This document shows, in pieces, positions 7,384 through 63,933 of a DNA stretch of 64,000 nucleotides. The notes under the pieces are model-generated. The model ran no database searches and was not told the origin of the DNA. It saw only the letters and a list, made by a program, of their open reading frames with translations. The DNA is taken from the NCBI GenBank assembly GCA_964583155.1, contig CAZOUY010000005.1:7698-71697 (forward strand), read 5' to 3'. The translations under genes were made by a program, and so were the position numbers. Every line of letters begins with the position of its first letter. Positions within the stretch are counted from its first letter, which is position 1. Source of the stretch: an uncultured Coprobacillus sp. GTDB taxonomy: Bacteria > Bacillota_I > Bacilli_A > RFN20 > CAG-826.

Positions 7384-7394
7384 TATTCATTGTT

Positions 7395-7509: not shown

Positions 7510-8262
7510 ATGGCAAGAAAAGCACGAGCGAAGAGCTCGGTGGGTTACTATTACATTCGCTTAAAAGCGGCGGATGAAATAGAGTTTAACCATGAAGATG
7601 GAATGATCTTTTTACGATGTCTAAAGCATTATAGTGGTTTCGAATTGCTTTGCTATTTATTGACCAGTAAAAATTTTTCCTTTGTAATTCATGAAGGTGA
7701 TTTACATCTTGAACAAATGATGCGCAAGGTATTGGGAAAGTTTATTCGGGCTTACAAAAAAGAGCATAGCGCAATTCAAGAGATATTTAAGGATCGCTAT
7801 TATTCTGAACCGGCCGATAATATTGAACAAGTTTTCTCCTTTATTGGTAAGATACATAATTTGGGTGATAGCTTTCATAGCCTTCTATGCAGCATGCCCG
7901 ATTATTTGGAAAATCCATATGTCGATCGCACATTTTATCATCGCTATTGCCAAGGAATCGATGATTTTCAAGCTCGATGTCAGGCATATATTATGAAGAA
8001 TAAAAACCATCGCCGTTTAAGCGATGAAGAATTAAAAACGCTATTAGAAAAGACGTATCAAATTAGCATTATGGAAATTTATAAATTACCGAAATCGAAA
8101 TTGATTCGGATTCTCGATGAAGTGATGAGAGTAACAAAGGTTTCCGCTCGTCAAATTGCCCGAATCACGACTCTACCATTACGCTTTCTATGGGATTTAG
8201 GCAAAAGAATAACTTCTACTAATAATGCGAAGATAGAGAAGGAAGGTACTTATGAGCATTAA
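7510..8262 (+). CDS. COG1943 (IS200/REP-associated Y1 transposase)-like protein with a degenerate HuH motif and a C-terminal DnaA_C-like HTH
   Basis: The N-terminal 150 aa follow the COG1943 pattern (YYYIR...IFL.CLKHY...ELLCYLLTSKNFSFVIHEG...DRYYSE...IGKIHNL). The HuH positions read NFSF and carry no histidines. The C-terminus has ...VSARQIARITTLP.RFLW, resembling the DnaA C-terminal HTH. Confidence 0.4.
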   Translation: MARKARAKSSVGYYYIRLKAADEIEFNHEDGMIFLRCLKHYSGFELLCYLLTSKNFSFVIHEGDLHLEQMMRKVLGKFIRAYKKEHSAIQEIFKDRYYSEPADNIEQVFSFIGKIHNLGDSFHSLLCSMPDYLENPYVDRTFYHRYCQGIDDFQARCQAYIMKNKNHRRLSDEELKTLLEKTYQISIMEIYKLPKSKLIRILDEVMRVTKVSARQIARITTLPLRFLWDLGKRITSTNNAKIEKEGTYEH

Positions 8263-9169: not shown

Positions 9170-9171
9170 CC

Positions 9172-12057
9172 ATGAAGAAAGTTATTTTATACATTCTTTC
9201 ATATGTCGGCATCACCGCTACAGTAGCAACGGGCTATGTCATGATTTCTCCCCAGAAGATAATTTCCGAAAGCGTGGATAGTAGCGAGCCTTCATCAACC
9301 ACGCCAACACCACCGCCACCACCAAGCAAGGCCTCACTTTTTATTGGTCAACTCATGCAGGCTGGTAATATTGGTTTGGATCTTCAAGTAACCATCGGCG
9401 ATGATAGTAGCGTTTATAATGTCGATTTTCAAGGCGCAGTCGGTTATGAGGATGTCGATAACATAAAATTGCATGGTCAGATGAATTTTGATGTCAAAGG
9501 GGCCTTAATTGACACAGAAATATCATATTTTGACTCAGTATTATATTTGGAAACCAACTTTATGAATGCCAAATTAGCGGTCAACACCTTCGGACAAGGA
9601 CTCGATGATCTTCTGACGAAAATGGAAATTACCATGCCGGATTTAAGCACCTTGCTTCCAAATATCGATACAGATATGCTTTTAAATGAAATTTTAAATT
9701 TGGATTTTCAAATTGAAAATGGTTATCAAAAAGCGGATTTTCATCTCACCGAGGATATTGTCTTGACCTTTTATGCCAATGACGATATGAAATTGGAAAA
9801 AGTGAGCGGTTCATTTTTTATTCAAGGCCTGAAGGTGGATTTAAATGCCAATACCTCTCTTTTAGGAGTCGGGCATTATCAATTCGTGTGTCCGGAAACC
9901 TCGGAAAAGTCCTTTATCGATGTTGAGCATTTCTTCCCGATTATTGATAATTTTTACCAATTGACGAAACAAAAACAATTTGATGTTGATATTCAAGCTG
10001 AGCTTAAAAAAGATGATGCGGTCTTAGGATCCTTGCGCGGGAATGCCGTATTTGATGTTTCAACGCGTGACATTTATGGTGATTTTTCCTTTATTAAGGA
10101 TTTGAAGACATATGAATTTACGACAGCCTATTATGGTGATCAACTGTACTTCAAGCTCAACAATCTTTTCCATGGTCGCCTTCATAAGGAACGCGTGTTA
10201 GAGATATATGACATCATAAAGGATTATACTTCTAATGACATCTTTGAAGCTACATCATCGACCATCAGTGAATTGCTCGATTCGACAATCTATGGCGATA
10301 TTCAAAAGGGAGATTATAGTCGCCTATCCGCTTTTATTAAGGGTATTGCGCTCAATGATGGCCATCTCGAGATTGGCTTAGATGCCTCATGCTTAGGACT
10401 AAATGGTGAAATGTTGGTGATCACTCTTGATAACACGCAACAAAAAATAACATCTTTGACCATCGATGGTCTCAGTTATCAAGAATACGATTTATCGCTG
10501 AAGGTAAGCATTAATGATTATTCGATGCTACCAATAATCGATGAAGCGGATTATGAGGATTACGCGCCGCTATTAAATATTTATGATGAATTAGTGGCTT
10601 TAACGAATCAAAAGCAATTTGCCTTTAATCTTGATACTACTATCATGAATCAAGAGAAGTCATATTCTGTGGATGGCTTAGTGCAATTTTCCATCGCTTC
10701 CGACGACGATTTGGTCGATGCGAGCAAGTCTGCCTATGTTTCTTTAAACATCAACGATCAGGTTAAAACACATACCTTAGTGATGGAATTAAGCAATGAT
10801 GATCTCTATTTTGTTTATAACAATAAATTAAAGGGTCGCATTGCAGTGACAAGTGTCAAAGAGATTTTCACCATGATCAGCGATCTAATTGCCGAAGAGG
10901 ATCCCCTCTTATCGGAACTTGCTTCGCTCATGCCAAGCGCGACCGATTTCGGAATCATCGGACAAATTATCAATAAAGATTATTCGGGATTATCATTAGA
11001 TTTAATAAAGGAATTTTCGGTTCAAGAAAATTATTTAGCGATGGTGCTTTCAAGCTCCGTTTGTAACGCCAAAGATGACTTTAAATTGCAGATTAATTAT
11101 GAAAACAATCAGCTGCAAAGCCTCGCATTGGAAAACTTTGCTCTTGATGCATTAGCCTTGGAAGGTACTTTAACTATTGAAGCATTTGATGAAACCTTAG
11201 CTTTGGATAAGGACGATAATTATTTTGATTTGAATTCCTTAAAGACGCTTATCTCATTAGGAATTACGACAATGCGCCAAGAATACTATCATTTGGTGGG
11301 CAGTGCGAATATTGCTATTTCCGGCAGTAATCTAGAAATTCCGGTGTCAGTCTTAATTCATAATAAGAATGGTCAAGCCGATGTTCATATTCATTTGGAT
11401 AACATTCCGATTATTTCACTTGTCAATTCACTTCCGATTGGCTTAAAGGATTCGACCGGCGAATATAAAATGATGGTAGCCTCGGATTCCTCTTCGCGAA
11501 AGGCGGACATCTATCTTGCCGATGATATGGTTTATATTAATCGTAGCGAAGAAGTGACCTTCAAGAAAATTAAATTGACGGGTATTTCTTCGAAAAAGGA
11601 AACCTATGTCCGCCAAGTTAAGACCGATATGAGCGGCTTTACTAGCAATTTGACCTATTATCTATTTGAGTTTATCCTCGGCTTTGGCGAAACCATTACC
11701 AACCAGATCGCATCGAGTATGAATATGCTCCCTGTTGAGGAGATGAAATTTGATTCCTTAATCAAAGATTACTCCTACGATGAAGCTCAACATCAATTCT
11801 TATTTGATATTGATTTCTCCGCTTTGACCGGTGATAACAAGGTGGATAGCACGCTGTTAACGATCACCCATAATGTAGATGGTGAGCAATATCTGACCGG
11901 CTTATCATTAGCGATGAGCATTTCTAAAATTGTGAAGGTCAACATCAATATGGAAATGGTCGATTATGGAATGACTTTGGATATGAGCCAATTGCTGACC
12001 TTTATTTCCGATTATCCCTATGAGATGAATCAAGAATATATTTCTCATAGCAAATGA
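9172..12057 (+). CDS. Large (961 aa) secreted or surface protein, function unknown
   Basis: N-terminal signal/anchor followed by a Pro/Thr-rich linker (TTPTPPPPPS). Long beta-rich sequence. Translationally coupled to the upstream gene. Confidence 0.45.
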   Translation: MKKVILYILSYVGITATVATGYVMISPQKIISESVDSSEPSSTTPTPPPPPSKASLFIGQLMQAGNIGLDLQVTIGDDSSVYNVDFQGAVGYEDVDNIKLHGQMNFDVKGALIDTEISYFDSVLYLETNFMNAKLAVNTFGQGLDDLLTKMEITMPDLSTLLPNIDTDMLLNEILNLDFQIENGYQKADFHLTEDIVLTFYANDDMKLEKVSGSFFIQGLKVDLNANTSLLGVGHYQFVCPETSEKSFIDVEHFFPIIDNFYQLTKQKQFDVDIQAELKKDDAVLGSLRGNAVFDVSTRDIYGDFSFIKDLKTYEFTTAYYGDQLYFKLNNLFHGRLHKERVLEIYDIIKDYTSNDIFEATSSTISELLDSTIYGDIQKGDYSRLSAFIKGIALNDGHLEIGLDASCLGLNGEMLVITLDNTQQKITSLTIDGLSYQEYDLSLKVSINDYSMLPIIDEADYEDYAPLLNIYDELVALTNQKQFAFNLDTTIMNQEKSYSVDGLVQFSIASDDDLVDASKSAYVSLNINDQVKTHTLVMELSNDDLYFVYNNKLKGRIAVTSVKEIFTMISDLIAEEDPLLSELASLMPSATDFGIIGQIINKDYSGLSLDLIKEFSVQENYLAMVLSSSVCNAKDDFKLQINYENNQLQSLALENFALDALALEGTLTIEAFDETLALDKDDNYFDLNSLKTLISLGITTMRQEYYHLVGSANIAISGSNLEIPVSVLIHNKNGQADVHIHLDNIPIISLVNSLPIGLKDSTGEYKMMVASDSSSRKADIYLADDMVYINRSEEVTFKKIKLTGISSKKETYVRQVKTDMSGFTSNLTYYLFEFILGFGETITNQIASSMNMLPVEEMKFDSLIKDYSYDEAQHQFLFDIDFSALTGDNKVDSTLLTITHNVDGEQYLTGLSLAMSISKIVKVNINMEMVDYGMTLDMSQLLTFISDYPYEMNQEYISHSK

Positions 12058-26166: not shown

Positions 26167-27285
26167 ATGGACAATAAGGAATTGTATCTCAATAGAAAAA
26201 ATTTTGATTTAATCTGTCGCTTCTTAAAGATTCCTGATAATGTTGATCTGGAGTTTCTTTATAAGTGCTATTATCAAGTGGTTGAAGCCCTTATTGCTAT
26301 GTTGGAGAGCCAAAATATTCCTCTTTTAGGAAAAATTCAACCTCCGGTTATCACTGCTTATATTCTAAATGAGCATCTCTATAGCGTCGCCGGGCTTGAT
26401 GATAACAAGCGCCACGAGATGGAAAATAATGAAAAATATGTCAAAAAGCTTTGTTCCATCGCTCTAGATAAGTATTTTACGCTCGGTCATCTACGATATG
26501 AAGAAGGCTTGTTAACGGATCGTTATTATCCACCGATCACCCTCATTCAGCTATATACAAGCTATGTTTTGCATCTTTTGAAAAAATTCGCACAGAAGAG
26601 CCCCAGTCAAACGCTGATGGTCGATATTTTACATAAAGCCTTCATGATGAGCGATTGCATCACCAATCTTTTGGTCACCGGCTTTGAAACCGAGGCTTTT
26701 TCCACATGGCGGACCCTTCATGAAACAGAATGCAATGCGATTATCATCTTCAAATATGGACAACCGATCATCAATGCTTATCTTCGTCATATCACCTATG
26801 GATTGGCTTTTCGAAATGTTTTGGGAAGCGCCGAAGAGCAGGATCAGGTTTTTGCGGAGATTAAAGCTAAAATGAAATCTTTGGGGCTCAAGAGCAAGGA
26901 TATGAAAAGATTCATCGAGTGTGGATGGCTATATAGTATTCCGGATCTTGATAAATACCCTGATTTCCGCCTTAATTTCCGTAATGGCACCGAATATATC
27001 GCCGGCCTATCGGGAATGAACAGCCGGTATGAAATGTCAAGTGAGATCGCCCATTCATCGCCATTATTGATCTATTCGAATCGTGAATTCTTCTTTTATC
27101 TTTCCATCGTCTCGCTTTATGAGTCCTTCCTGCGCATGGAGGCTCTCTTTAACGAAATATATTCGGCGACCATGAGCGAAAAAGAAAAACAAGAATATCA
27201 GTTGATGCGTGATACTTATCTCCCGCAATTAAAAATTGTCTTGGATATTGAAAGCCATCGCCTTTCCAAAATGACGAATAAATAA
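26167..27285 (+). CDS. Hypothetical protein (372 aa)
   Basis: An AGGAGG RBS lies upstream. No recognisable catalytic motifs. Confidence 0.45.
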   Translation: MDNKELYLNRKNFDLICRFLKIPDNVDLEFLYKCYYQVVEALIAMLESQNIPLLGKIQPPVITAYILNEHLYSVAGLDDNKRHEMENNEKYVKKLCSIALDKYFTLGHLRYEEGLLTDRYYPPITLIQLYTSYVLHLLKKFAQKSPSQTLMVDILHKAFMMSDCITNLLVTGFETEAFSTWRTLHETECNAIIIFKYGQPIINAYLRHITYGLAFRNVLGSAEEQDQVFAEIKAKMKSLGLKSKDMKRFIECGWLYSIPDLDKYPDFRLNFRNGTEYIAGLSGMNSRYEMSSEIAHSSPLLIYSNREFFFYLSIVSLYESFLRMEALFNEIYSATMSEKEKQEYQLMRDTYLPQLKIVLDIESHRLSKMTNK

Positions 27286-42786: not shown

Positions 42787-45700
42787 ATGAAGTATGAAAA
42801 CGCACTTTTAAAGGCAACAGCTGAAACCATCGATGAGTTTTATGAATTAATTGCGCAAGGATATAATATTTTTAATATCACCTTAAATATTGATGACGAG
42901 GAAAAGAAAAAGCTATTTGAAAGGGCATCGATGAGAAAACACCCTAATGATGATTACATTTTAGGATATTGCTACTATAATGGTGTTGGAATAGAACGGA
43001 ATTATAGTCAAGCATTTGAGCATTTTAAAATATCCGCTAATGATGGCGATTTAAGAGCACAAAATAATCTTGGCTTGTGTTATTATGATGGCCAGGGCGT
43101 TCCACAAAGCTATGAAGAAGCAGTAAAATGGTATAGATTAGCGGCAGATCAAGAAAATGCAAATGCACAATATAATCTCGGCTGTTGCTATTATAATGGT
43201 TTAGGTGTCTCACAAAGCTATGAAGAAGCAGTAAAATGGTATAGATTAGCGACAAATCAAGGACTTGCAAGAGCACAATTAAATCTTGGCAATTGCTATT
43301 ATAATGGTCAAGGTGTTCCACAGAGTTATGAAGAAGCAGTCAAGTGGTGTAGATTAGCGGCAGATCAAGGAAATGCAAGAGCACAATATACTCTCGGTGT
43401 TTGCTATTATAATGACCGAGGCGTTCCACAAAGCTATGAAGAAGCAGTAAAGTGGTATAGATTAGCGGCAGATCAAGGATATGCTGATGCACAATATAAT
43501 CTTGGCAATTGCTATTATAAAGGCCAAGGTGTTCCACAAAGCTATGAAGAAGCCGTAAAATGGTATAGATTAGCGGCAAATCAAGGAGATGCTGATGCAC
43601 AAAATAATCTCGGCCTTTGTTATGATAATGGCCAAGGTGTTTCGCAAAGCTATGAAGAAGCCGTGAAGTGGTATAGATTAGCCGCAAATCAAGGAAATGC
43701 AAGAGCTCAATATAATCTTGGCAATTGCTATTATAAAGGCCAAGGTGTTTCACAAAGCTATGAAGAAGCCATGAAGTGGCATAGATTAGCGGCAGATCAA
43801 GGATATGCTGATGCACAATATAATCTTGGCAATTGCTATTATAAAGGCCAAGGTGTTCCACAAAGCTATGAAGAAGCCGTAAAATGGTATAGATTAGCGG
43901 CAGATCAAGGGCTTGTAGAAGCTCAATATAATCTAGCTTTTTGCTATAAGTATGGTCAAGGTGTTCCACAAAGCTATGAAGAAGCCGTGAAGTGGTATAG
44001 ATTAGCCGCAAATCAAGGAGATGCTGATGCACAAAATAATCTCGGCCTTTGTTATGATAATGGCCAAGGTGTTTCGCAAAGCTATGAAGAAGCCGTGAAG
44101 TGGTATAGATTAGCCGCAAATCAAGGAAATGCAAGAGCTCAATATAATCTTGGCAATTGCTATTATAAAGGCCAAGGTGTTTCACAAAGCTATGAAGAAG
44201 CCATGAAGTGGTATAGATTAGCGGCAGATCAAGGAAATGCAAGAGCTCAATATAATCTTGGTGTTTGCTATGATAATGGCCAAGGCGTTCCACAAAGCTA
44301 TGAAGAAGCCGTGAAGTGGTATAGATTAGCCGCAAATCAAGGAAATGCAAGAGCTCAATATATCCTAGCTCTTTGTCATGCTAATGACAAAGATATGGCA
44401 CAAAGTTATGAAGAAGCAGCAAAGTGGTGGACATTAGCCGCAAATCAAGGAAATGCAAGAGCACAATATAATCTCGGTGTTTACTATGCTAAAGGCCAAG
44501 GTGTTCCACAAGATTATAAAGAAGCCGTGAAGTGGTATAGATTAGCGGCAGATCAAGGATATGCTGATGCACAATATAATCTCGGAGTTTGCTATGCTAA
44601 AGGCCAAGGTGTCTTACAAGATTATGAAGAAGCATCCAAGTGGTGGACATTAGCTGCAAATCAAGGACATGCAGATGCTCAATATGATCTCGGTGTTTGC
44701 TATGCTAAAGGCCTAGAATTGCCACAGAGTTATGAAGAAGCATCCAAATGGTGGAAATTAGCTGCAAATCAAGGGCTTGCAGATGCTCAATATGATCTCG
44801 GTTTTTGCTATGCTAAAGGCCAAGGTGTCTCACAAGATTATGAAGAAGCATCCAAGTGGTGGAAATTAGCGGCGAATCAAGGAAATGCAGAAGCTCAATA
44901 TAATCTAGCTCTTTGTTATAATAAAGGTCAAGGTGTTCCACAAAGTTATGAAGAAACAGTAAAGTGGTATAGATTATCTGCAGAGCAAGGACATGCAGGC
45001 GCACAAAATAATCTCGGTGTTTGCTATTATAATGGCCTAGGCTTGCCACAGAGTTATGAAGAAGCCGTGAAGTGGTGGACATTATCGGCAAATCATGGAC
45101 TTCCAATTGCTCAATATAATCTCGACGTTTGCTATGAGAATGGTCAAGGCATTCCACAAATTTATGAGGAAACTATTCAATTAGAGAGGAATATAGGAAA
45201 AAAAGAGTCTCAATATTATGATGAACGAGCAAAATTGTTGAAATCAGCGGCAGATCAAGGATATGCTGATGCACAATATAATCTCGGTGTTTGCTATGAG
45301 AATGGCAAAGGAGTTCCACAAAGTTATGAAGAAGCCGTGAAATGGTATAGATTAGCGGCAGATCAAGGACATGCAGGTGCTCAATACAATCTCGGCGTTT
45401 GCTATGAAAATGGTTTCGGCATTCCACAAAGTGATGATGAAGCCGTTAAATTGTATAAAAAAGCGGCAGATCAAGGCGATAAAGAAGCACAACTTGCGTT
45501 AGATAAAATATTAACAGAATTAGAAATAGAATATAAATTTAACAATGTAGGAAAAAGTTATGATGTATTCGTGTCATGGAATCATAACGATAAGGATTTT
45601 AAAAATCGATTGGTTGATGGAATAGAAAATAAGAATAATATTAATAATGATGGAGAAGCATTATATACTCATTATCGTGCTTGGGAAAGTGATCGAGATG

Positions 45701-47607
45701 CAAGTGGGGTCATAGATTTATGTATTGAAAGAGCTATTAAGTCTTCTAAGTTTTTTTTGATTATTCTTTCAAAATATTCTCTAAAAAGCAAATGGGTAAA
45801 AAAGGAACTCGAAATAGCGTTACAATGTGTGAAAAACGGGGAATTGACTGAAGAAAATTTGATCATTGTCTATTTGGACAGTGAAGATTTTAACGTCAGT
45901 GAAGAAATTGCAAAAATAAGCGATGAAAATGATCCATTCAAAAAGCTAATTACTTTTGCTTTAGCAGGTAAGTATTCCGATAAAAATGATGATCGAATAG
46001 TGACTAATGTCTGTGCCCAAATCCAACAAGGAATGGCAAAAACAGCGATACGTAACTATATCTATCAACATACGAAAGAAAATGAATTTAAATACAACGT
46101 TCAAAGTCAGTATAGTGATAATAATATGTCAGGGAATCCCGTCGATGCTTTCATGACATATGAAGATGGATATATTGATCGGAATATTTATGATGAAAAA
46201 GATAATGGCTTTAGCATTGATGAAGTGATCAATAGTAAAGAAAACCTCATCATAGTGGGTGAAGGAGGAATCGGTAAAAGTCTTTATCTATCCTATTTAA
46301 TGTATAAGCATTTGGCCATTAATAAGTTTTATGTCAGAATCAACTTAATTAACTATGTCGGTTTACTTAAAAGTATTAATTCCATTGATCAATTGTTAAA
46401 TACAGAACTAGAAACCTATCTTAATGGTAAAGTTGGTGTTGCTAAAGATAATTATCTTCCAACAATTAGAGAAAATGGGGCATCAATAACGATTATTATG
46501 GATGGCTTAGAGGAAATAGATGATGAAAATAATGAAAAGTTATGTAAACTTATTAAAGCATATCGTGCGGCAAATACATGGGATCGATTTATTTTTACAT
46601 CGCGAAATGAGAATAGTAGGCCAGTAAATGGAATAAAAGAAATTTTTATTAGCAAAGATATCCGTGTATTACATCTAGAAAGATTAACATACGAAGAGCA
46701 AAAAAGTTTATTTGATAATATTGCCAAAAGAATTATAAAGGATCCAAAGCCAGGTGAGATAGGACCTAATCGAGAAAGACTTAAAATAGATTTTTTTGAA
46801 GAATTAAAAAAGATAAGTGATGAAATAACAGGTAATCCATTCTTGTTATCAAATCTTATTTTCATTTACCTTTTTAGAAGTGGCGAGGATAAAAATAAAG
46901 ACCTACCAAAAACGAGATATGAAATTATTAAACAAATCGTCGATATCTTTATTCATAAGCTTGAAGATAATCGAGGAGTATTATCATTATTCAAATATAA
47001 AGATTACTTAACACCACAAAGAATGGAGAAGCTACTAGGAAATATAGCTTTACGTAAATTACAGGGCGCACGTCAAAACTTCAAGGAATTGATTTATGAA
47101 TACTTAAGTAAAGAAGAGAGAAGCGCTAAAGAACATAATATAGAAAAAGTAGCTAAAGAAATATATGAATATCTGGCGCGACGAGCGATCATTTATGAAA
47201 ATAAGATTTCTCACGATCTTTTCACATCCTTTTTTGCTACTTACTATATTTATTTAAATGTCTATCAGCTAAAAAATAAGCATGATGTTTATTATATAGG
47301 CTTTCAAAAAGAGGGCAAGGAATATTTTAAATATCGGTTAGAGGAGTTTAAGAAACATATTGAACGATGGGCTGATGTTCCGATTGAAATTATTATGCAG
47401 CTTGATTATGAGATAAGAAATTTAAATGATCAGGAGATGGATGATAGCAATATGAGTAAAACAGTTTTCAAAGAAACATTAGAACTAGCAAAAGATGGTT
47501 TACCGGATTTTGTAAAGATGATGCAGGAATATCTTGATAGACAGGGAACATTCTACTTTGAAACATTTATTAGGCAATTATTATCACTCATGGAAGAGAA
47601 GGTATAA
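42787..47607 (+). CDS. 1606-aa Sel1-repeat/TIR/NACHT (STAND NTPase) protein, a candidate NLR-like antiviral defense protein
   Basis: About 23 tandem 36-aa Sel1-like repeats (consensus AQYNLGNCYYKGQGVPQSYEEAVKWYRLAADQG) span roughly aa 55-910.
The TIR domain starts at YDVFVSW, with IERAIKSSKFFLIILSKYSLKSKWVKKELEIAL matching the plant and bacterial TIR alphaC-to-betaD region including the catalytic Glu.
The NACHT domain has Walker A GEGGIGKS, Walker B IIMDGLEEID, FIFTSR and GNPFLLS motifs. Confidence 0.8.
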   Translation: MKYENALLKATAETIDEFYELIAQGYNIFNITLNIDDEEKKKLFERASMRKHPNDDYILGYCYYNGVGIERNYSQAFEHFKISANDGDLRAQNNLGLCYYDGQGVPQSYEEAVKWYRLAADQENANAQYNLGCCYYNGLGVSQSYEEAVKWYRLATNQGLARAQLNLGNCYYNGQGVPQSYEEAVKWCRLAADQGNARAQYTLGVCYYNDRGVPQSYEEAVKWYRLAADQGYADAQYNLGNCYYKGQGVPQSYEEAVKWYRLAANQGDADAQNNLGLCYDNGQGVSQSYEEAVKWYRLAANQGNARAQYNLGNCYYKGQGVSQSYEEAMKWHRLAADQGYADAQYNLGNCYYKGQGVPQSYEEAVKWYRLAADQGLVEAQYNLAFCYKYGQGVPQSYEEAVKWYRLAANQGDADAQNNLGLCYDNGQGVSQSYEEAVKWYRLAANQGNARAQYNLGNCYYKGQGVSQSYEEAMKWYRLAADQGNARAQYNLGVCYDNGQGVPQSYEEAVKWYRLAANQGNARAQYILALCHANDKDMAQSYEEAAKWWTLAANQGNARAQYNLGVYYAKGQGVPQDYKEAVKWYRLAADQGYADAQYNLGVCYAKGQGVLQDYEEASKWWTLAANQGHADAQYDLGVCYAKGLELPQSYEEASKWWKLAANQGLADAQYDLGFCYAKGQGVSQDYEEASKWWKLAANQGNAEAQYNLALCYNKGQGVPQSYEETVKWYRLSAEQGHAGAQNNLGVCYYNGLGLPQSYEEAVKWWTLSANHGLPIAQYNLDVCYENGQGIPQIYEETIQLERNIGKKESQYYDERAKLLKSAADQGYADAQYNLGVCYENGKGVPQSYEEAVKWYRLAADQGHAGAQYNLGVCYENGFGIPQSDDEAVKLYKKAADQGDKEAQLALDKILTELEIEYKFNNVGKSYDVFVSWNHNDKDFKNRLVDGIENKNNINNDGEALYTHYRAWESDRDASGVIDLCIERAIKSSKFFLIILSKYSLKSKWVKKELEIALQCVKNGELTEENLIIVYLDSEDFNVSEEIAKISDENDPFKKLITFALAGKYSDKNDDRIVTNVCAQIQQGMAKTAIRNYIYQHTKENEFKYNVQSQYSDNNMSGNPVDAFMTYEDGYIDRNIYDEKDNGFSIDEVINSKENLIIVGEGGIGKSLYLSYLMYKHLAINKFYVRINLINYVGLLKSINSIDQLLNTELETYLNGKVGVAKDNYLPTIRENGASITIIMDGLEEIDDENNEKLCKLIKAYRAANTWDRFIFTSRNENSRPVNGIKEIFISKDIRVLHLERLTYEEQKSLFDNIAKRIIKDPKPGEIGPNRERLKIDFFEELKKISDEITGNPFLLSNLIFIYLFRSGEDKNKDLPKTRYEIIKQIVDIFIHKLEDNRGVLSLFKYKDYLTPQRMEKLLGNIALRKLQGARQNFKELIYEYLSKEERSAKEHNIEKVAKEIYEYLARRAIIYENKISHDLFTSFFATYYIYLNVYQLKNKHDVYYIGFQKEGKEYFKYRLEEFKKHIERWADVPIEIIMQLDYEIRNLNDQEMDDSNMSKTVFKETLELAKDGLPDFVKMMQEYLDRQGTFYFETFIRQLLSLMEEKV
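42949..45516 (+). repeat. Tandem 108-bp coding repeats (Sel1-like units), with near-identical copies and duplicated higher-order blocks of about 420 bp
   Basis: A stretch such as caaagctatgaagaagccgtgaagtggtatagattagccgcaaatcaagg recurs many times. The segment 43560-43800 is nearly identical to 43980-44220. Confidence 0.85.
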
Positions 47608-52577: not shown

Positions 52578-53610
52578 CCTTTATGGTTTGGAAATCAAAA
52601 AATTGGAGGCTCTCATGCTCAATGAAGGGCAGACCAAATATCGTGCCACGCAGCTTTATACATGGATTTACGGGAAAAAAGCGACCTCTTTCGATGAAAT
52701 GAGCGATGTTTCCTTACGATTTCGCGAAGTCTTAAAAGAAAAGTATTGCTTAGATAAGCCTTCGATTTATATCCGTCAGGATGCCGCGGATGGCACTGTT
52801 AAATTACTGCTTAATTTAAAGGACAATGCGAAGATTGAAACGGTTTTAATGCGCTACAGCTATGGCAATGTTTTGTGCGTGACCTCGCAGGTCGGCTGTA
52901 ATATGGGGTGTAGCTTCTGTGCTTCCGGTTTATTAAAAAAGCAACGTGATTTGCTTCCCGAAGAGATGGTGGGGCAGGTTTTGGTCATGAATGATCTGCT
53001 TTATCAAGAGGGGGATCATCGTGGCATCACGCACGTTGTGGTTATGGGAACCGGGGAACCCTTTGATAATTATGATAATGTCCTAGATTTTGTTCGCATC
53101 ATCAATCATCCGAAGGCCCTAGCGATCGGAGCTCGGCATATCACTGTTTCCACCTGTGGAATCCCTGAAAAAATCATTCGATACGCTCATGAAGGCTTGC
53201 AGATTAATTTGGCTATTTCTCTGCATGCTCCCAATAATGAAGTTCGTTCGAAAATCATGAAGATCAATCGCGCGTATCCCTTAGAAGAATTGATTCCAGC
53301 GGTTAGTGAATATAATAAAATAGCTTCGCGCCGCGTGACCTTTGAATATATCCTTTTAGCGGGAATAAATGATTCATTGGATGATGCGGATCAGTTAGCA
53401 AAATTAATTCGACCAACTTTTGCCTATGTTAATTTGATTCCCTATAATCCTGTTATGGAAAATGGCTATCGACGCTCTAGTGATGCACAAGTCCATGCAT
53501 TTTTAGATCGATTAACAAAAAGAGGCGTTACGGCAACGGTCAGAAAGGAATTTGGTACGGATATAGATGCCGCGTGTGGACAACTCCGGGCCAAGCATGA
53601 AAAAAGATGA
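52570..53610 (+). CDS. rlmN: 23S rRNA (adenine2503-C2)-methyltransferase, radical SAM
   Basis: The CNMGCSFCASG radical-SAM cluster motif, a second Cys motif and a length of 346 aa. Confidence 0.85.
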   Translation: MINLYGLEIKKLEALMLNEGQTKYRATQLYTWIYGKKATSFDEMSDVSLRFREVLKEKYCLDKPSIYIRQDAADGTVKLLLNLKDNAKIETVLMRYSYGNVLCVTSQVGCNMGCSFCASGLLKKQRDLLPEEMVGQVLVMNDLLYQEGDHRGITHVVVMGTGEPFDNYDNVLDFVRIINHPKALAIGARHITVSTCGIPEKIIRYAHEGLQINLAISLHAPNNEVRSKIMKINRAYPLEELIPAVSEYNKIASRRVTFEYILLAGINDSLDDADQLAKLIRPTFAYVNLIPYNPVMENGYRRSSDAQVHAFLDRLTKRGVTATVRKEFGTDIDAACGQLRAKHEKR

Positions 53611-54410
53611 AACATCATGGAGATTTTTGTTATTTAACTGATATCGGAAAAAAACGATCCGTCAATGAAGATTGTTCGATGATCATCAACAACGCTCATG
53701 GCGATACTTTGATGATGGTCTGCGATGGCATGGGAGGGCATCAAAAGGGTGATGTCGCCGCCCGATTAACCATCGATCTATTGATGGATGCTTTTAATAA
53801 AAAGGAACGCTTTGTAACGGTACGAGGCGCTAGAAAATGGTTAGAAAGAACTATTCGATCGATTAACGAGGCGGTCTATAATCGCGAAAAGGATGTTTCG
53901 TATGTTGAGCATATGGGAACAACCTTAGTCGCTTGTCTTATTCTCACCAAATCGATTGTTGTGGCCAATATTGGCGATTCCCGAGCGTATGTTTTGCGTA
54001 CGAAAGAAAATGAAGAGGTCTATGATTTTGAGCAGGTGACAAGCGATGATACCATCGCCGAATATTTGGTGAATATGGGCCGAATCAAAAAGGAAGATCG
54101 CGAGCATTTTACCTCGCGGCATATTTTAACCAATGCGATCGGCTTATTTCCTTCGGTGCGCTTGGAAATTAAGGTTTTGCCCTTTACGGAATTGAAATCT
54201 TCGCAGGACAATAAAAAGGATTGTTATACGATTTCAAGCATTTTATTATGCTCGGATGGTCTTTTTTCGATGCTGAATAAAGAAGAAATATTATCGTCAC
54301 TGACGATGGATGAAGAAATTGAAAATAAGGCCGAAAGCTTAATTACGATGGCCAATAATAACGGAGGCGATGATAATATCGCGATCGCTTTATGGGAGAC
54401 ATCTTTATAA
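53607..54410 (+). CDS. stp: PP2C-family Ser/Thr protein phosphatase
   Basis: MVCDGMGGHQKGDVAA and a C-terminal GGDDNI motif. Confidence 0.8.
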   Translation: MKHHGDFCYLTDIGKKRSVNEDCSMIINNAHGDTLMMVCDGMGGHQKGDVAARLTIDLLMDAFNKKERFVTVRGARKWLERTIRSINEAVYNREKDVSYVEHMGTTLVACLILTKSIVVANIGDSRAYVLRTKENEEVYDFEQVTSDDTIAEYLVNMGRIKKEDREHFTSRHILTNAIGLFPSVRLEIKVLPFTELKSSQDNKKDCYTISSILLCSDGLFSMLNKEEILSSLTMDEEIENKAESLITMANNNGGDDNIAIALWETSL

Positions 54411-54411
54411 T

Positions 54412-55275
54412 ATGGAAATCGGTTATCTTTTAGATCATCGTTTTCGTATCCTTTCCTTTATCAGCGAGGGGAGTACGGCCTTAGTGTATCGAGCGTATGA
54501 TGAAGTGCTTAAAAGAGATGTCGCTATCAAAATGATGCGCGATGATTTTTTAGTCGCCAATGATCGTTATGAAAATTTTGCTCGCGAAGCCGATTATCTA
54601 GCGAGCTTACGTCATATTAATATCATTCGGATTTACGGATTCGGCTATGATAACCGCCTTCCTTATTTGGTGGTCGAATTGGCAAAGGGCAAAACGCTTT
54701 CTCATCTTTTGGAGACCCACGGGCGTTTTCGCTTTCAAGAGGCAAAGGCCATCATGAAGCAATTATTAGCCGCGATTATTTTTACGCATCAATGCGGATT
54801 ATTGCATCGTGATATTAAGCCACAGAATATCTTTTATGGTGCTGATGGTTCTTTGAAAATCAGCGATTTTGGAATCGCGATCGCTCTTCAAAATGAAGTT
54901 TTTTCTTCCTCAAAGGTCTATGGCTCCTTACCATATTTAGCTCCTGAGGTTATCCAAGGACAGTCACCATCGGTGCAGAGCGATATCTATGCGCTAGGAA
55001 TAACCTTTTATGAGATTTTAACAGGACATTTGCCTTTTAATGGGGAGAGCGTTGAGGAGATCGCCAAGATGCATATCTCGCATTCCTTTCCATCCTTAAA
55101 AAAGGATAATATCGTCAATTATGAAGAGATCGATAGCGTCTTACGCAAGGCCTGCGCTAAAAATCCTTTAGATCGCTATAAAGATGCCGAATCGATGCTT
55201 GAGGATTTATCTCGCATCGAGGATGGTAAAAAAACGAAGAAAAAGTCATGGTTTCGAAGACTTTGGAGGTTTTAA
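54412..55275 (+). CDS. Ser/Thr protein kinase (kinase domain only; no TM or PASTA domains)
   Basis: HRDIKPQNIF catalytic loop, DFGIA and APE motifs. 288 aa. Adjacent to stp. Confidence 0.75.
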   Translation: MEIGYLLDHRFRILSFISEGSTALVYRAYDEVLKRDVAIKMMRDDFLVANDRYENFAREADYLASLRHINIIRIYGFGYDNRLPYLVVELAKGKTLSHLLETHGRFRFQEAKAIMKQLLAAIIFTHQCGLLHRDIKPQNIFYGADGSLKISDFGIAIALQNEVFSSSKVYGSLPYLAPEVIQGQSPSVQSDIYALGITFYEILTGHLPFNGESVEEIAKMHISHSFPSLKKDNIVNYEEIDSVLRKACAKNPLDRYKDAESMLEDLSRIEDGKKTKKKSWFRRLWRF

Positions 55276-58269: not shown

Positions 58270-58447
58270 TTTTTCCTCCTTGTTATTTTATATTATATGC
58301 CATTGAAGTTAAAAACAAAAGACCGAGGTTTGACCATCATTAAAAAAATATTTTTTTAATTTTATTATTTCTTATTCGCGCGAGATATGCGACAATATAG
58401 AAGGATTAATCTATCCTTTGGATAGATAATTATAGGAGGAAATAGAG

Positions 58448-59875
58448 ATGAAATTATTTGATACAATTCCTGATAATTTCTTTTCCGTCCTTTCGAGCAA
58501 AAATAAAGAAATCTATGCGATGGCTCTTTTGGTGCTATATCGTTCCTTACAAAGTGATGAAATGTCGATTAAAAAGGATGATTACATCCGTACCTTACGG
58601 GAAAAGGCCACTGATTTAGTGATGAATTTTGATTTTTCCGAAGAAGGAGAAGACGATGATTTGGGGGTTAATCCTAATTTACCGACCCGCGTTGCTTTTA
58701 TCGTCCGTCGTTTAGAGGAAACTGGTTGGATTGAAATTGAAATGCGCAGCGACACATTTGAAGAGTATATTGCCTTGCCGAGCTATTCCATTCAAATGTT
58801 GACTTTTTTGAATGATATCGTTTCAGAGTCGGAGGTGGCTTACAATTCGTTGGTGCATTCGACATATAGTGAATTGAAATTAGAGGATGAAGAACGCGAT
58901 GAATTCATGTACGCCACTCTCATTCGCGTCTATGAAAATACCAAGCGTTTACGGGTTGAATTAGTGACCCTAGGGCACTCTATTCGCATCTTTCAAAATA
59001 AGCTCGGTCATCTTTTTACGACCAATGAGGTTCTGCATGAGCATTTTGATGAGTATAAGGTGCGCATCAGCGATCGCTATTATCACCCTTTGAAGACCTT
59101 TGATTCTGTCACTAAATTCAAACGACCGATTTTGGCGATTTTACAAAAGTGGCTTCGTGATGATGAGGTTCGAACGAAATTAGTAATGCAGGCGATGATG
59201 TGGGGACATTCCAAGAATCAAAAGGATGCCGAACAAGATATCATCAATCGCATCACCTATATCCAGGATATGTATGAGCAGGTCAATCAGATGGTGGCCG
59301 ATATTGATCAAAAGCACGCCGAATATACCAAATCATCGGCGACAAAGATCATCTATTTAAACAATTCCGATAAAACCATCAAGGGCCATTTGGAAACCAT
59401 TTTCAAGGCTTACGCTAAGGCTAATGTCGATGGTGTCGGATTACGAGGCATATTATCGCGAATGCAGGATGCGATCACTCTTTTTGATCAAGGCTATATC
59501 AATCCCGATTCGATTACCTTACCGATCGTTAGGAAATACCGCGATGAGGCTGAGCCCCTTCCGATTATTTGGAACAGTGAAGAGGCCGGCGATTATACGA
59601 TGCAGGAATTTCTTGATCAAACTCGGAATTCCTTTACGGATGAAAGAATATATGCCTTTATGGAGACCGCTTTTCAAGGTGAAAATGAGGTTTTTATCGG
59701 TGATATCCCGTTACCTGATTTTGATGCGTTTATCCTTTTAATTCTCGCATCGCTGAAAAAGAGCGATGATGCTTGCTTCTATACGATTGAACAAAATGAA
59801 GGACGAATTCTCTCACAAGGATATGTCCTACCAAATTTCACTTTTAAACGAAAGGAGAACGACAATAATGTTTGA
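58448..59875 (+). CDS. JetA/MksF-like protein, the putative kleisin-like subunit of an SMC-like complex
   Basis: 475 aa and first of three translationally coupled genes. Size and position match DUF3375 (JetA/MksF). The sequence-level assignment is unverified. Confidence 0.45.
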   Translation: MKLFDTIPDNFFSVLSSKNKEIYAMALLVLYRSLQSDEMSIKKDDYIRTLREKATDLVMNFDFSEEGEDDDLGVNPNLPTRVAFIVRRLEETGWIEIEMRSDTFEEYIALPSYSIQMLTFLNDIVSESEVAYNSLVHSTYSELKLEDEERDEFMYATLIRVYENTKRLRVELVTLGHSIRIFQNKLGHLFTTNEVLHEHFDEYKVRISDRYYHPLKTFDSVTKFKRPILAILQKWLRDDEVRTKLVMQAMMWGHSKNQKDAEQDIINRITYIQDMYEQVNQMVADIDQKHAEYTKSSATKIIYLNNSDKTIKGHLETIFKAYAKANVDGVGLRGILSRMQDAITLFDQGYINPDSITLPIVRKYRDEAEPLPIIWNSEEAGDYTMQEFLDQTRNSFTDERIYAFMETAFQGENEVFIGDIPLPDFDAFILLILASLKKSDDACFYTIEQNEGRILSQGYVLPNFTFKRKENDNNV

Positions 59876-60488
59876 GGAAGAATTTGTTAAATTATCTAAT
59901 AGTGATCAAACGGAATTTGCGCGTGTTATTAATAATCTATTGTTAAAATCATTCGTTGTTCGCGAATCGTTTGATGCGCGCGAAAAAATGATGAAGATAA
60001 ATCCCGAATATCGTTTCTTGGAACGATATTACGAATTAGTGGAAAACTATTTGAAATATTCCGGATGGAAAATTGAAAAGGATGTTGCGCGGGGTGTGAT
60101 TGCTTTGCGAAATGATTATGAGCAGAATCGCTTAAGAATTGATCGTGAAACCTCATTAGTGATGTTTACTTTGCGCTTAATTTACGAAACGCAAAAGGCG
60201 GAGTCAAATGCCTCAGGAGAAAGCTTATATATGACCACTCCGGAGCTTTTAAAGACGATGCTGGAATATGGCATTACGATGCAAGGCAAAAAATTGACCG
60301 GACGTCTTTTGGGACGATCATTGCGATTTATGGCGGCTCATAATATCATTGCCAAGGTGAGCGGCTCTTACGATGAAGGCAATGTCGCTTTTTATATTTT
60401 GCCTTCCATTACATTCGCGGTTGATAATCAAAAAATCGCGGCTATGTCGGAAGCGCTTGATCGCTTGAAGGAGGGCGAAACCCTATGA
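59868..60488 (+). CDS. JetB/MksE-like protein (DUF4194-like)
   Basis: About 206 aa, with its ATG overlapping the upstream stop by 8 nt and an AAAGGAG RBS. The helical content is typical of MksE/JetB. Confidence 0.45.
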   Translation: MFEEEFVKLSNSDQTEFARVINNLLLKSFVVRESFDAREKMMKINPEYRFLERYYELVENYLKYSGWKIEKDVARGVIALRNDYEQNRLRIDRETSLVMFTLRLIYETQKAESNASGESLYMTTPELLKTMLEYGITMQGKKLTGRLLGRSLRFMAAHNIIAKVSGSYDEGNVAFYILPSITFAVDNQKIAAMSEALDRLKEGETL

Positions 60489-63400
60489 AATCCCTCAAAA
60501 AAATAAAAATTATTAATTGGCATTATTTTTGGAATGAAACGATCAATATCGAGCCCATCGTTTTTCTTACCGGCTTAAACGCCTCAGGTAAATCCACTTT
60601 AATCGATGCGATGCAGGTTATTCTTTTAGGCGATACCAGCGGTCGTTTCTTTAATAAAGCCGCCACTGAGAAATCGTCGAGAACCTTAAAGGGGTATCTA
60701 AGAGGTGAATTAGGCGATGCTGAAGACGGAGGCTTTAAATATCTTCGTAATGGAAGATTTACCTCTTATATCGCGATGGAATTCTATGATGATTATCATG
60801 ATTCCTCCTTTACGTTAGGTATTGTTTTTGATTTATTCGCGGATGGTAGTGAAGAGCATCGTTTCTTCTTATTGGAGGATAAAATCCCGGAAAATGAATT
60901 TGTGAGCAACAATGTTCCGATGGAATACAAGGCTCTTAATTCCTTCTTTAGCGAGACCTATCCGGGAAAGTTTAAATTCTTAGATTCCAATCGTCAATAT
61001 CAAGATCTGCTGAAGCGCAAATTCGGCGGCTTGAAGGACAAGTATTTCTCTCTTTTTAAAAAGGCGGTTTCCTTTTCGCCGATCACCAATATCGAGACCT
61101 TTATTACGGAATATGTCTGCGACGCTCAGACGAATATCAATATCGATTCCATGCAGGCCAATATTTTGCAATACAAGAAATTGCAAACTGAGGCCATGGT
61201 CATGTCGATGCGGATTGAAAGATTGACAGCGATCGAGCAGGCATACAAATCGTATCTTGAGCAAAAGGAAGCTCTCTCCTTATATAGCTATATTATCGAA
61301 AGAGCGGAATATCAAAACGATCTCAATCGGTTATCTTCATATAATGAGCAGGTGAGCAGAGCTCAATCGCGCTTACAGGAAATCGATGAAGAAATATTGG
61401 ATGTGGACGAAGAAATTCGCGAATTTTATCGAAAGAAGGAAAAATTGACCTCCGATAAATTGACCTCCAACACTTATCGCTTGACCGATGAATTATGGGA
61501 AGAAAAGCGGAAAACCGAAGCTCAATTAGCGAGCTTATCCCGTGATATCCAAAGCGTTATCAATAATTTAGGCCATTACGCCGATTCCTATATTCTTAAG
61601 GCGACGGCCATGGTTGACCTTTTGCATCAATTTGATTACTCAATAATGAGTAAAGATAACAAAGCGGAAATCGAAGAGCTCGAAAGCATCGCTTTGAAGG
61701 TCATCCGCTTATCAACGCAATTAAAGGATGAGCATTTAGTGCATATTGAGCTTTTGACGACCTCCGTTTTAAATGAATGGCGCGAGAGTCTTAGCCATTT
61801 CAAAGCCCAGGTCAACGCTTTGAATATTTCGTTAGGAAAAACGATTCATAGCCTTGAGCAAAAAACCGCCCTTCTTCGTCAACAGGAGGTCGATATGCGC
61901 AATGGCGGAAAATCCTATGAACGAAGCTTATCCTACATTCGACAAGAATTAGCCGCGGAGCTTCGACGTCGACACGGACATGAGATTGAGGTTGCTATTT
62001 TTGCTGATTTAATCGATATCAAGACCCCATTATGGACCAATGCCATTGAAGGATTTTTGCATAACCAAAAATTCAATCTTTTCGTCGATCCGCAATACTA
62101 TTTTGAAGCGCATGAAATCGTCCGTGATTTGATGAATAAAACGGGCTACTATATGACGACCTTGGTCGACCAAGCCAAAATCATCGAGCGTCGCTTTGTC
62201 GCCGAAAAGGGCTCTTTGGCGGAGGAAATTTCCACGGATCACGAGGGTGCACGTGGCTATACCAATTTCTTGATCGGCCATCTGAAAAAATGTCGGACGG
62301 TGCAGGAAGCCCGTGAGAGTGGCAATGGTATAACGGCCAATTGTGATCTATATCGTAATTTCGCTTTATCGACGCTTAACCCACGTTTCTATACACCGGC
62401 CTATATCGGTCGAAAAGTCGGTCAAGAGCAGATCGATGCGAAGCATCTTGAAGTGACCAATAATCAAAAATTATGTGAAGATTATCGTCAGCTTTATCGA
62501 ATTGTCGGTGAGGCTAATGATTTAGAGGTGATCAACGCCTATGAAATTCAATCTTCCTTAGCGGTTCTTGAGAAAGCCGGCGATGTCCAAGGTCTCCATG
62601 AGACCCTTGATTACATTGAAAGCGAATTGGAAAAGCACGATCTTTCGCAAATTAAGACCTTTGATCAACGGATTCATGATATTGAAGAGGATATTAAAGG
62701 CTTGGAGAATGATCGATCGACGCTTTTTGAAGAGAAGGGTCGCCTTAATTCGCAAATCAAAGCTCTTCAAGAGGAAAAAATTCCAGAAGAGGAAGCGCGA
62801 GCCGAGGAAAGAAAGAAACGCTTGGAGGATAATTACGATGGCTTCTTTGTGGATGAAAAGGCCGCTCCGCTTTTCCAACAATTGCTATTGGAGAATAAGA
62901 CGACTCTTGAGATCGTTTCGGAATATAAGGTTAAATTATCCAAGGCCCAATATTTGCAACAGAATTTTTATGCGGAATTGGTTAAATTGCGGAAGGACTA
63001 TATTCGCGATTACCGTTTGAGCTATGATGCCGAAACCAAGGACAATGATGTCTATGATCAAGAATTATTGGAAATGCGCGATGTCAAATTACCGCAATAT
63101 CAAATAGCGATCACGGATGCCTATGAAAAGGCCACCAAGCAATTCAAGGATGACTTTATCAATAAATTAAAAACGGCCATTGAGTCGGTCGAAACGCAAA
63201 TTGATGAGCTTAATATCGCTTTGAGCGCATCGACCTTCGGAAATGATTCTTATCGCTTTATTGTCCGGCCATCGCAGGAATATCGCCGCTATTACGATAT
63301 GATTAAGGATGATCTGTTATTAGAAGTCGGGGAAGATGATTCGGCCTTTATCAATAAATACGAAGAAGTGATGAATGATCTCTTCCGTCAGATCGTCGAT

Positions 63401-63868
63401 GTCGGCGAGCATGGTGATCGGCAAAGTGCCGTTTTGGCCAATGTTGAAAAATTTACGGATTATCGCTCCTATTTGGAATTCGATTTAATCGTGAAGAATC
63501 GTGATGGCGTGGAGCAACGCTTATCCAAGACCTTACGTAAGAAATCGGGAGGCGAAACGCAGACGCCGTTCTACATTTCCGTTTTGGCTTCCTTTGCCCA
63601 GTTATATCGTGTTAACGAAAAAGGAGAGCTCGGCAATTCCTTCCGACTGATCATTTTCGATGAGGCCTTTTCTAAAATGGATCGAGGCCGTATTAAAGAA
63701 TCGATTCGACTTCTCCGTAAATTTGGGCTTCAGGCCATTCTTTCAGCACCTTCTGATAAGGTCGCCGATATTTCGGAATTGGTGGATGAAACCCTTGTCG
63801 TTTTGCATGACAAAAATACGTCACGCGTGCGTCTATACGCGGAGGAACAAAAAATTACGAGTAAATAA
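60485..63868 (+). CDS. JetC/MksB-like SMC-family ATPase (1127 aa)
   Basis: N-terminal Walker A LTGLNASGKSTLIDAMQVILLGDTS, long coiled-coil arms, and a C-terminal ABC signature SGGETQ plus Walker B LIIFDEAFSKMD. An ATGA start/stop overlap joins it to the upstream gene. Confidence 0.65.
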   Translation: MKSLKKIKIINWHYFWNETINIEPIVFLTGLNASGKSTLIDAMQVILLGDTSGRFFNKAATEKSSRTLKGYLRGELGDAEDGGFKYLRNGRFTSYIAMEFYDDYHDSSFTLGIVFDLFADGSEEHRFFLLEDKIPENEFVSNNVPMEYKALNSFFSETYPGKFKFLDSNRQYQDLLKRKFGGLKDKYFSLFKKAVSFSPITNIETFITEYVCDAQTNINIDSMQANILQYKKLQTEAMVMSMRIERLTAIEQAYKSYLEQKEALSLYSYIIERAEYQNDLNRLSSYNEQVSRAQSRLQEIDEEILDVDEEIREFYRKKEKLTSDKLTSNTYRLTDELWEEKRKTEAQLASLSRDIQSVINNLGHYADSYILKATAMVDLLHQFDYSIMSKDNKAEIEELESIALKVIRLSTQLKDEHLVHIELLTTSVLNEWRESLSHFKAQVNALNISLGKTIHSLEQKTALLRQQEVDMRNGGKSYERSLSYIRQELAAELRRRHGHEIEVAIFADLIDIKTPLWTNAIEGFLHNQKFNLFVDPQYYFEAHEIVRDLMNKTGYYMTTLVDQAKIIERRFVAEKGSLAEEISTDHEGARGYTNFLIGHLKKCRTVQEARESGNGITANCDLYRNFALSTLNPRFYTPAYIGRKVGQEQIDAKHLEVTNNQKLCEDYRQLYRIVGEANDLEVINAYEIQSSLAVLEKAGDVQGLHETLDYIESELEKHDLSQIKTFDQRIHDIEEDIKGLENDRSTLFEEKGRLNSQIKALQEEKIPEEEARAEERKKRLEDNYDGFFVDEKAAPLFQQLLLENKTTLEIVSEYKVKLSKAQYLQQNFYAELVKLRKDYIRDYRLSYDAETKDNDVYDQELLEMRDVKLPQYQIAITDAYEKATKQFKDDFINKLKTAIESVETQIDELNIALSASTFGNDSYRFIVRPSQEYRRYYDMIKDDLLLEVGEDDSAFINKYEEVMNDLFRQIVDVGEHGDRQSAVLANVEKFTDYRSYLEFDLIVKNRDGVEQRLSKTLRKKSGGETQTPFYISVLASFAQLYRVNEKGELGNSFRLIIFDEAFSKMDRGRIKESIRLLRKFGLQAILSAPSDKVADISELVDETLVVLHDKNTSRVRLYAEEQKITSK

Positions 63869-63875
63869 TTTAAAA

Positions 63876-63908
63876 ACGCCGGTCCTTTTTTGGTCGGCGT
63901 TTCTAAGT
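63876..63908 (+). terminator. GC-rich hairpin terminator after the SMC-like gene
   Basis: AACGCCGG...TTTTTT...CGGCGTT stem-loop. Confidence 0.4.
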
Positions 63909-63933
63909 TCATTATAAAATTTAAGGAGGCATT

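Follow-up and report, generated by a model that had tools for sequence, protein, structure and literature searches.

What does a complex of the Wadjet type, built around a structural maintenance of chromosomes (SMC) ATPase, do in a genome where the nuclease subunit is missing beside it? The question is raised by jetABC, a three-gene operon at positions 58448-63868 (+ strand) of a 64-kb stretch of DNA from an uncultured Coprobacillus sp. (contig CAZOUY010000005.1), the whole of which we analyzed and call here the window. A preliminary description of this DNA had read three translationally coupled genes as JetA, JetB and JetC, had placed a terminator and glgC directly after them, and had concluded that the locus lacks JetD, the Toprim/DUF2220 subunit by which the anti-plasmid Wadjet system is defined. 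Either an accessory or primary MksBEF-type condensin, it had suggested, or a Wadjet with its nuclease gene lost or located elsewhere could account for the operon. Our analysis favors the former, because JetD is missing from the locus in 80 other species and in five distant lineages and because the genes are under strong purifying selection. On balance, we consider it probable that jetABC encodes an old, vertically inherited, nuclease-free MksBEF-type complex acting on the chromosome.

The jetABC operon and its products

The open reading frame (ORF) list contained three overlapping + strand ORFs at 58448-63868, and PADLOC assigned jetA, jetB and jetC all to Wadjet type I. The ATG of jetB (59868) lies 8 nt within the 3' end of jetA, whose stop codon is at 59873-59875, and is preceded by AAAGGAG, while the ATG of jetC and the stop codon of jetB overlap as ATGA, with GAAGGAGG preceding the jetC ATG. 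The ORFs, their overlaps and the hidden Markov model (HMM) matches thus agree with the earlier assignment of three coupled genes of 475, about 206 and 1127 aa.

The first gene, jetA (58448-59875, +; 475 aa), encodes an MksF-like kleisin. Its product matched the Pfam family JetA (PF18982; E=1.3e-98, residues 30-469) and the PADLOC model JetA1 (E=3.4e-134). An AlphaFold model (predicted local distance difference test score, pLDDT, 69.5) displayed an N-terminal winged helix, a helical bundle, a disordered linker (residues 335-372) and a C-terminal winged helix, which as predicted is the layout of a kleisin, and its best fold matches in the PDB were the Wadjet-II JetA chain 9qe0_E (E=4e-7) and MukF chains. 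The preliminary description had suggested comparing the 475-aa protein with DUF3375 and the 206-aa protein with DUF4194. Only the second of these families proved to be the right one: DUF3375 did not match the 475-aa protein, the JetA family being PF18982/DUF5716, while the 206-aa protein matched DUF4194 with E=2.9e-18. NCBIfam holds no model for JetA or JetB.

The second gene, jetB (59868-60488, +; 206 aa), codes for an MksE-like KITE subunit. Although the listed ORF is 240 aa long (59766-60488), homology begins at residue 35, that is, at the ATG at 59868, and this start agrees with those of the orthologues and with the gene call on L001, a 30.9-kb contig that carries an identical locus. Besides DUF4194, JetB matched PADLOC JetB1 (E=8.6e-71). 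We discarded a single-sequence structure model of this protein (pLDDT 46.6) and used an alignment profile against the PDB instead; only solved JetB chains matched (8dk1_E, E=0.0014; 8as8_C, E=0.027).

The third gene, jetC (60485-63868, +; 1127 aa), encodes an MksB-like SMC ATPase. It matched the Pfam families AAA_29 (E=1.5e-16) and SbcC_Walker_B (E=2.7e-25), PADLOC JetC1 from end to end (1143 bits) and, in a sequence search of the PDB, the JetC chain 8dk1_C (E=1.6e-9), so that the solved structures matching the operon products by sequence were only JetC and JetB chains of Wadjet complexes. The match to the Pfam MukB N-terminal domain was weak (E=4.5e-5; 23.7 bits against a cut-off of 23), that to SMC_N fell short (16.9 bits against a cut-off of 40), and SMC_hinge gave none. 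The protein is laid out as an N-terminal head (about residues 1-210), a coiled coil, a hinge (about 500-660), a second coiled coil and a C-terminal head (about 890-1127). The SMC-type motifs and long arms that had been described before were located at Walker A G30-LNAS-GKST38, signature S1021-GGE-1024 and Walker B D1059-E1060, and 73 orthologues bore them out: FLTGxNxSGKST, SGGE, FDEA and the hinge of about 160 aa were invariant or nearly so, and in the conservation profile the heads and hinge were conserved and the arms variable.

Search for JetD

To look for the nuclease subunit we built an HMM from three JetD proteins, each annotated in a complete JetABCD operon on a plasmid of Cohnella, Rossellomorea or Butyrivibrio. 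Neither this HMM (E<=10) nor tblastn with the same proteins (E<=1) gave a single match when the window and 81 related loci, together about 1.5 Mb, were translated in all six frames, while JetD was recovered readily in positive-control JetABCD loci. Pfam searches of candidate ORFs of the window disclosed no Toprim or DUF2220 domain, but AddAB, ATP synthase, a Sel1/TIR protein and others instead. On L001, jetABC is followed by glgC, glgD, glgA, a glutamine amidotransferase gene, asd, dapF and an aminotransferase gene and, further downstream, by genes for a helix-turn-helix (HTH) protein and a 428-aa protein without Pfam match; no JetD domain was found in the 10 kb downstream of jetABC on this contig. 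The absence of JetD at this locus, as first described, is therefore upheld by Pfam, HMM and tblastn searches of both the window and the identical L001 locus. Extending the comparison, we found no JetD within 8-10 kb of jetABC at about 85 JetD-less loci (80 orthologous and five outgroup loci), whereas jetD lay directly 3' of jetC in every JetD-bearing relative examined. Since none of 80 other species has JetD at this position, the comparison of loci rules out a recent or assembly-related loss.

Two further candidates were considered and rejected. One was a substitute effector encoded between jetC and glgC, but the ORFs inserted there in some relatives, which do not occur in the window, encode DUF3137-like membrane proteins with two transmembrane segments, not JetD. 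These proteins, of 300-358 aa with both segments N-terminal and a weak DUF3137 match, are encoded downstream of jetC in several JetD-less lineages (L010 15517-16422, L088 14997-15914, L090 14748-15824, L091 15932-16951, L092 17879-18907 and L093 15024-15962). The copies are homologous to one another, have no similarity to JetD, lie just upstream of glgC in most lineages, and could be plain syntenic neighbors. The other candidate was a sequence signature of JetD loss in JetC, but only two positions, both in the hinge, differed consistently between JetD-less and JetD-bearing proteins, and these were uninformative.

Synteny and selection in close relatives

When one genome of each GTDB species was scanned with a JetA alignment as query, 108 loci were confirmed, and we kept 80 of them. 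Across these species-level genomes, JetA identity to the window ranged from 95% down to 50%. The relatives are metagenome-assembled genomes (MAGs) of uncultured Bacilli, recorded, among other names, as 'Coprobacillus sp. CAG:826', 'Bacillales bacterium UBA...', Candidatus Onthovivens, 'Tenericutes bacterium ADurb.Bin239' or 'uncultured Mollicutes', and the closest named record, 'Coprobacillus sp. CAG:826', is 79-85% identical to the window in JetABC. CAG-826 is a family of the GTDB order RFN20 that is predicted to be without peptidoglycan and sporulation (PMC10868615). Given the identity in JetABC, the DNA of the window very probably belongs to this group.

Gene order was near-universal in the 80 loci. 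On the 5' side it runs priA-rsmB-rlmN-PP2C phosphatase-Ser/Thr kinase-rsgA-rpe, and it continues with genes for a 215-aa membrane protein, rpmB (-) and a 156-aa membrane protein (-), then jetA-jetB-jetC and glgC-glgD-glgA. In some loci extra ORFs adjoined jetABC, encoding a membrane protein, a DUF5677 protein or a metabolic enzyme, but never JetD. Wherever the contig did not break off within the operon, all three genes kept their full length and colinearity (80 jetA, 78 jetB and 73 jetC).

The ratios of nonsynonymous to synonymous substitution rates (dN/dS) were very low. Two pairs were unsaturated at synonymous sites: for L003/L004 (dS about 0.5) the ratios were 0.045 for jetA, 0.006 for jetB and 0.033 for jetC, and for L005/L006 they were 0.007, 0.000 and 0.023, respectively; in more diverged pairs jetABC gave 0.05-0.21. 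Among the flanking genes, glgC gave 0.03-0.11, rpe 0.32 and rsmB 0.23, and overall the values for jetABC were equal to or below those of the flanking glgCDA, rlmN, rpe and rsmB at similar dS. Thus, jetA, jetB and jetC are under strong purifying selection. GC content was unremarkable. Because the genes are intact, their motifs invariant, their dN/dS at the housekeeping level and GC content unremarkable, the comparative data indicate that jetABC is a vertically inherited core gene set, and not a mobile defense island or a decaying remnant.

Some features of these loci are recorded here in their own right. A DUF5677 protein of about 357 aa is encoded on the - strand directly upstream of jetA in a subgroup of loci (L033, L035, L037-L040 and L075), and the window itself encodes a DUF5677 protein at 26167-27285 (+). 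Six 'cleanbin' MAG records (L042, L043, L045, L065, L066 and L080), titled Parabacteroides goldsteinii, Gemmiger formicilis, Acutalibacteraceae, Lachnospiraceae and Slackia isoflavoniconvertens, share jetABC-glgCDA, and their JetA is 52-53% identical to that of the window, as in neighboring Bacilli MAGs; the organism names of these six records are probably wrong.

Distant relatives and the JetA tree

For the wider comparison, JetA was searched against representatives clustered at 50% identity and proved to belong to a small family, with 762 representatives retrieved at E<=1e-3. The CAG-826-like group collapsed into only two of them, and the next nearest were 35-41% identical. Outgroups were obtained by a profile search with the next-nearest JetA sequences followed by inspection of the contigs. 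In this way we found jetABC without JetD in five distant lineages (P0271, P0275, P0280, P0287 and P0335; JetA identity 35-43%), with ftsK, acpS, plsC, a glgB-like gene, leuS, relA and dnaG-rpoD as neighbors. In three of the five, glgC lay a few genes downstream of jetABC, with glgD and glgA next to it in two. The nearest JetD-bearing relatives, P0134 and P0276, carry jetABCD, with a 410-412-aa JetD_C protein encoded directly after jetC, and their neighbors are ParE toxins, HTH genes, a DUF234 ATPase and a PLD-helicase, a gene content that is typical of a defense island.

A neighbor-joining tree of JetA split all 23 of the 23 JetD-less sequences with a housekeeping context from all the JetD-bearing ones in 172 of 200 bootstraps. 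The simplest reading would be that JetD was lost once, long ago, or never gained on this branch, and that the operon then became fixed in the core genome. The JetD-less branch would have split long ago from the JetD-bearing Wadjet systems, and would thereafter have been inherited vertically as a core-genome operon in uncultured small-genome Bacilli, namely the RFN20/CAG-826-like group and its relatives.

Another JetABC without JetD is found at 2759-8351 of a 251-kb replicon of Agathobacter rectalis (NZ_CP143948.1; L083). It is a distant one, its JetC being about 25% identical, and it is followed by genes for a gamma carbonic anhydrase and a major facilitator superfamily transporter. Its JetA fell outside the JetD-less clade of the tree, so this looks like a separate, independent nuclease-less case.

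Proposed function and its alternatives

We propose that jetABC encodes a complete, active SMC holocomplex, composed of the JetA kleisin and dimers of JetC and of the KITE protein JetB, which would belong to the Wadjet type I/MksBEF lineage and lack the JetD nuclease. In the E. coli and P. aeruginosa JetABCD complexes, it is JetABC that extrudes loops with ATP and senses DNA shape, and JetD that cleaves (PMC10586767). Because of this division of labor, a JetABC that lacks JetD should remain able to load on DNA and to form loops by extrusion, but be unable to cut. Such an ATP-driven loop extruder would load on the host chromosome, like P. aeruginosa MksBEF or E. coli MukBEF, and would help to fold and segregate it rather than cut plasmids. 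Loop extrusion and action on the chromosome are what we infer by analogy with MksBEF and MukBEF, taken with the core-genome synteny and the purifying selection, and we likewise presume that the genome provides no nuclease from another locus.

Several points weigh against a chromosomal role. A core-genome position and strong constraint are unusual for defense, yet they are compatible with a defense role. The architecture of JetC and JetA is unchanged with respect to JetD-bearing homologues. Moreover, it is known that the aCAP domain of JetD docks on the JetC 'larynx' and that F919 of E. coli JetC inserts into a pocket of JetD (10.1101/2023.11.03.565488). In the JetC of the window, F918 (encoded at about 63236-63238), which is part of the motif LNxALxxSxFGxDxYxF immediately before the C-terminal head, could be the counterpart of that residue, although as a candidate equivalence only. 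Since F918 was invariant in 15 JetD-less and five JetD-bearing JetC proteins, the complex may still be able to dock a partner. As for scope, the search for JetD covered the locus and 10-kb flanks of each genome, and the scan sampled operon-bearing genomes only, so that it does not give the fraction of the lineage that carries the operon.

The unchanged JetABC architecture and the invariant candidate docking residue would fit a split Wadjet, that is, a system that is still an anti-plasmid nuclease and in which a jetD, or a non-homologous nuclease gene, lies elsewhere and its product joins JetABC in trans. We know of no precedent, however, for an unlinked jetD that is stable over comparable divergence. 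The position of jetD directly after jetC in the JetD-bearing relatives and the roughly 85 JetD-less loci with no JetD-like sequence within 8-10 kb also speak against such an arrangement, and we think it quite improbable. Immunity could also be exerted with no nuclease at all, if JetABC, as Wadjet does, sensed small circular DNA by completing loop extrusion and then silenced it, sequestered it or blocked plasmid segregation while leaving it uncut; Smc5/6, which silences episomes, offers a model. That the jetABC sequences are typed as Wadjet type I, and that shape and size sensing are properties of JetABC and only cleavage a property of JetD (PMC10586767), would fit this possibility. We nevertheless regard it as unlikely, given that a fixed core-genome position, vertical inheritance and housekeeping-level dN/dS are atypical of defense genes, that it is the JetD-bearing relatives which are held in defense islands, and that no JetD-less system is reported to act in this way.

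That the operon is merely what is left of a Wadjet deprived of its nuclease, now functionless and on the way to being lost, might be supposed of a host lineage whose genomes are reduced and in which gene loss is frequent (PMC7301438). But the three genes are intact wherever a contig end does not cut them, no ATPase motif varies, the dN/dS values stay at 0.00-0.05 in pairs short of saturation and at 0.05-0.21 in more diverged ones, and the keeping of 5.4 kb in reduced genomes itself argues for a function. Decay has a negligible probability on these grounds, and the selection data refute it in practice.

Comparison with known SMC systems

The chromosomal MksBEF-type function favored here has its nearest parallel in P. 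aeruginosa MksBEF, likewise a three-gene kleisin-KITE-SMC operon without MksG/JetD, which according to a preprint by Lioy et al. reportedly acts on the chromosome. It is regarded as a JetABCD complex that has lost its nuclease and now works in chromosome organization (PMC10586767). It belongs to another phylum, presumably as an independent loss, and is likened to jetABC here by its operon make-up; in addition, P. aeruginosa also carries Smc-ScpAB. While MksBEF without MksG has been described as 'scattered over the tree' (10.1101/2022.10.04.510915), the jetABC studied here is syntenic across a whole deep lineage.

With Wadjet type I, as known from E. coli GF4-3, P. aeruginosa PA14 and the Cohnella, Rossellomorea and Butyrivibrio plasmids, jetABC shares the JetA (PF18982), JetB (DUF4194) and JetC families, gene order, subunit sizes and translational coupling, and its best PADLOC models are JetA1, JetB1 and JetC1. 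It differs in having no JetD, in its housekeeping context in the core genome as opposed to a plasmid or defense island, and in a JetC that is only about 25-30% identical to the plasmid-borne examples. MukBEF, the model case of a Wadjet-like complex that serves as a chromosomal condensin, resembles it in that JetA folds as MukF and that the Pfam MukB N-terminal domain finds a weak match at the start of JetC, although the sequence families differ, with no Pfam match to MukE or MukF and one to MukB only at threshold. From Smc-ScpAB it is set apart by an SMC_N score below the cut-off, by the lack of an SMC_hinge match, and by having JetA and JetB, not ScpA and ScpB, as partners.

This raises the question of whether JetD-less JetABC replaced Smc-ScpAB as the sole chromosomal condensin in this small-genome Bacilli lineage. 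A tblastn search of the window and the 81 loci, which cover little of any one genome, with B. subtilis Smc, ScpA and ScpB gave only weak matches to JetC heads, and no smc or scpAB gene came to light in these sequences. An extension of the window on its upstream side added only a 1587-aa protein without known family. The operon follows rpmB, at the point where the Bacillus-type gene order that leads eventually to rnc-smc-ftsY breaks. An Asp23 gene in an outgroup genome, tried as a route to rnc-smc-ftsY, turned out to lie in a yqhY-nusB-xseAB-recN region. We hold such a replacement to be doubtful. If true, it would represent a second, independent MukBEF-like takeover, in Firmicutes, and a Wadjet-to-condensin transition with both states in sister branches.

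Flanking regions and other features of the window

The intergenic region upstream of jetA (58270-58447, +) is common to the divergent gene for the 156-aa membrane protein, a protein that was likewise considered as a substitute effector and has no family match in Pfam, PADLOC or NCBIfam. Reading of the sequence disclosed a predicted ribosome-binding site, AGGAGG, at 58434-58439, 5' of jetA. We infer a promoter upstream of jetA; a weak sigma-70-like match at 58340-58368 scored 9/12, and such matches were no commoner here than in shuffled sequence. Directly 3' of the jetC stop codon, RNA folding predicted a stem-loop followed by UUUCU (63867-63909, +; -18.9 kcal/mol, z=-5.45), and none of 200 shuffles was equally stable. 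A consensus terminator scan did not call the stem-loop at this position, because the T-run is short, but it is probably an intrinsic terminator that separates jetABC from glgC. The glgC start is the ATG at 63935 (MKKEIVAMLLAGGKGTRLESLT), and the full gene, with an NTP_transferase domain, is present on L001. The hairpin and this start codon accord with the order of terminator and glgC given in the preliminary description.

Elsewhere in the window, a gene at 42787-47607 (+), between NFACT/rqcH and gmk-priA, encodes a 1606-aa protein with about 21 Sel1/TPR repeats, a TIR domain at about residues 925-1033 and a weak nSTAND3 match. The 3' part of this gene lies in the lowest-GC stretch of the window (0.31), and its product is a candidate defense or signaling protein. 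Three tightly packed ORFs of 250, 305 and 961 aa at 7510-12057 (+) had no Pfam match; the products of the latter two start with a hydrophobic anchor or signal segment, and the trio also occurs on an independent contig (L087). The first ORF of the window, at 114-728 (+), encodes the C-terminal end of a 1587-aa protein (L086 2471-7234) with no Pfam family on record. Finally, a PP2C phosphatase and a Ser/Thr kinase are encoded at 53607-55275 (+). The kinase, of about 290-300 aa, consists of the kinase domain only and leaves no room for PASTA repeats, and a kinase apparently without PASTA repeats fits the predicted peptidoglycan-deficient lifestyle of the CAG-826 family.

Significance

It has been proposed in the SMC field that MukBEF and MksBEF condensins arose from Wadjet-type defense complexes by loss of the nuclease, and the evidence for this has been mainly structural resemblance. 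Nuclease-free Mks/Jet complexes are already known. New here are the uncultured gut Bacilli as hosts, a vertical inheritance of this depth and regularity, and the JetD-bearing sister branches available for direct comparison. The label 'Wadjet anti-phage system protein JetA' given by annotators probably misstates the role of the protein in these common gut bacteria. The well-supported JetD-less core-genome branch and its JetD-bearing sisters in defense islands, with essentially the same subunit architecture, make up a natural comparison set, and the change from a plasmid-killing SMC complex to a chromosome organizer becomes directly testable in this lineage.

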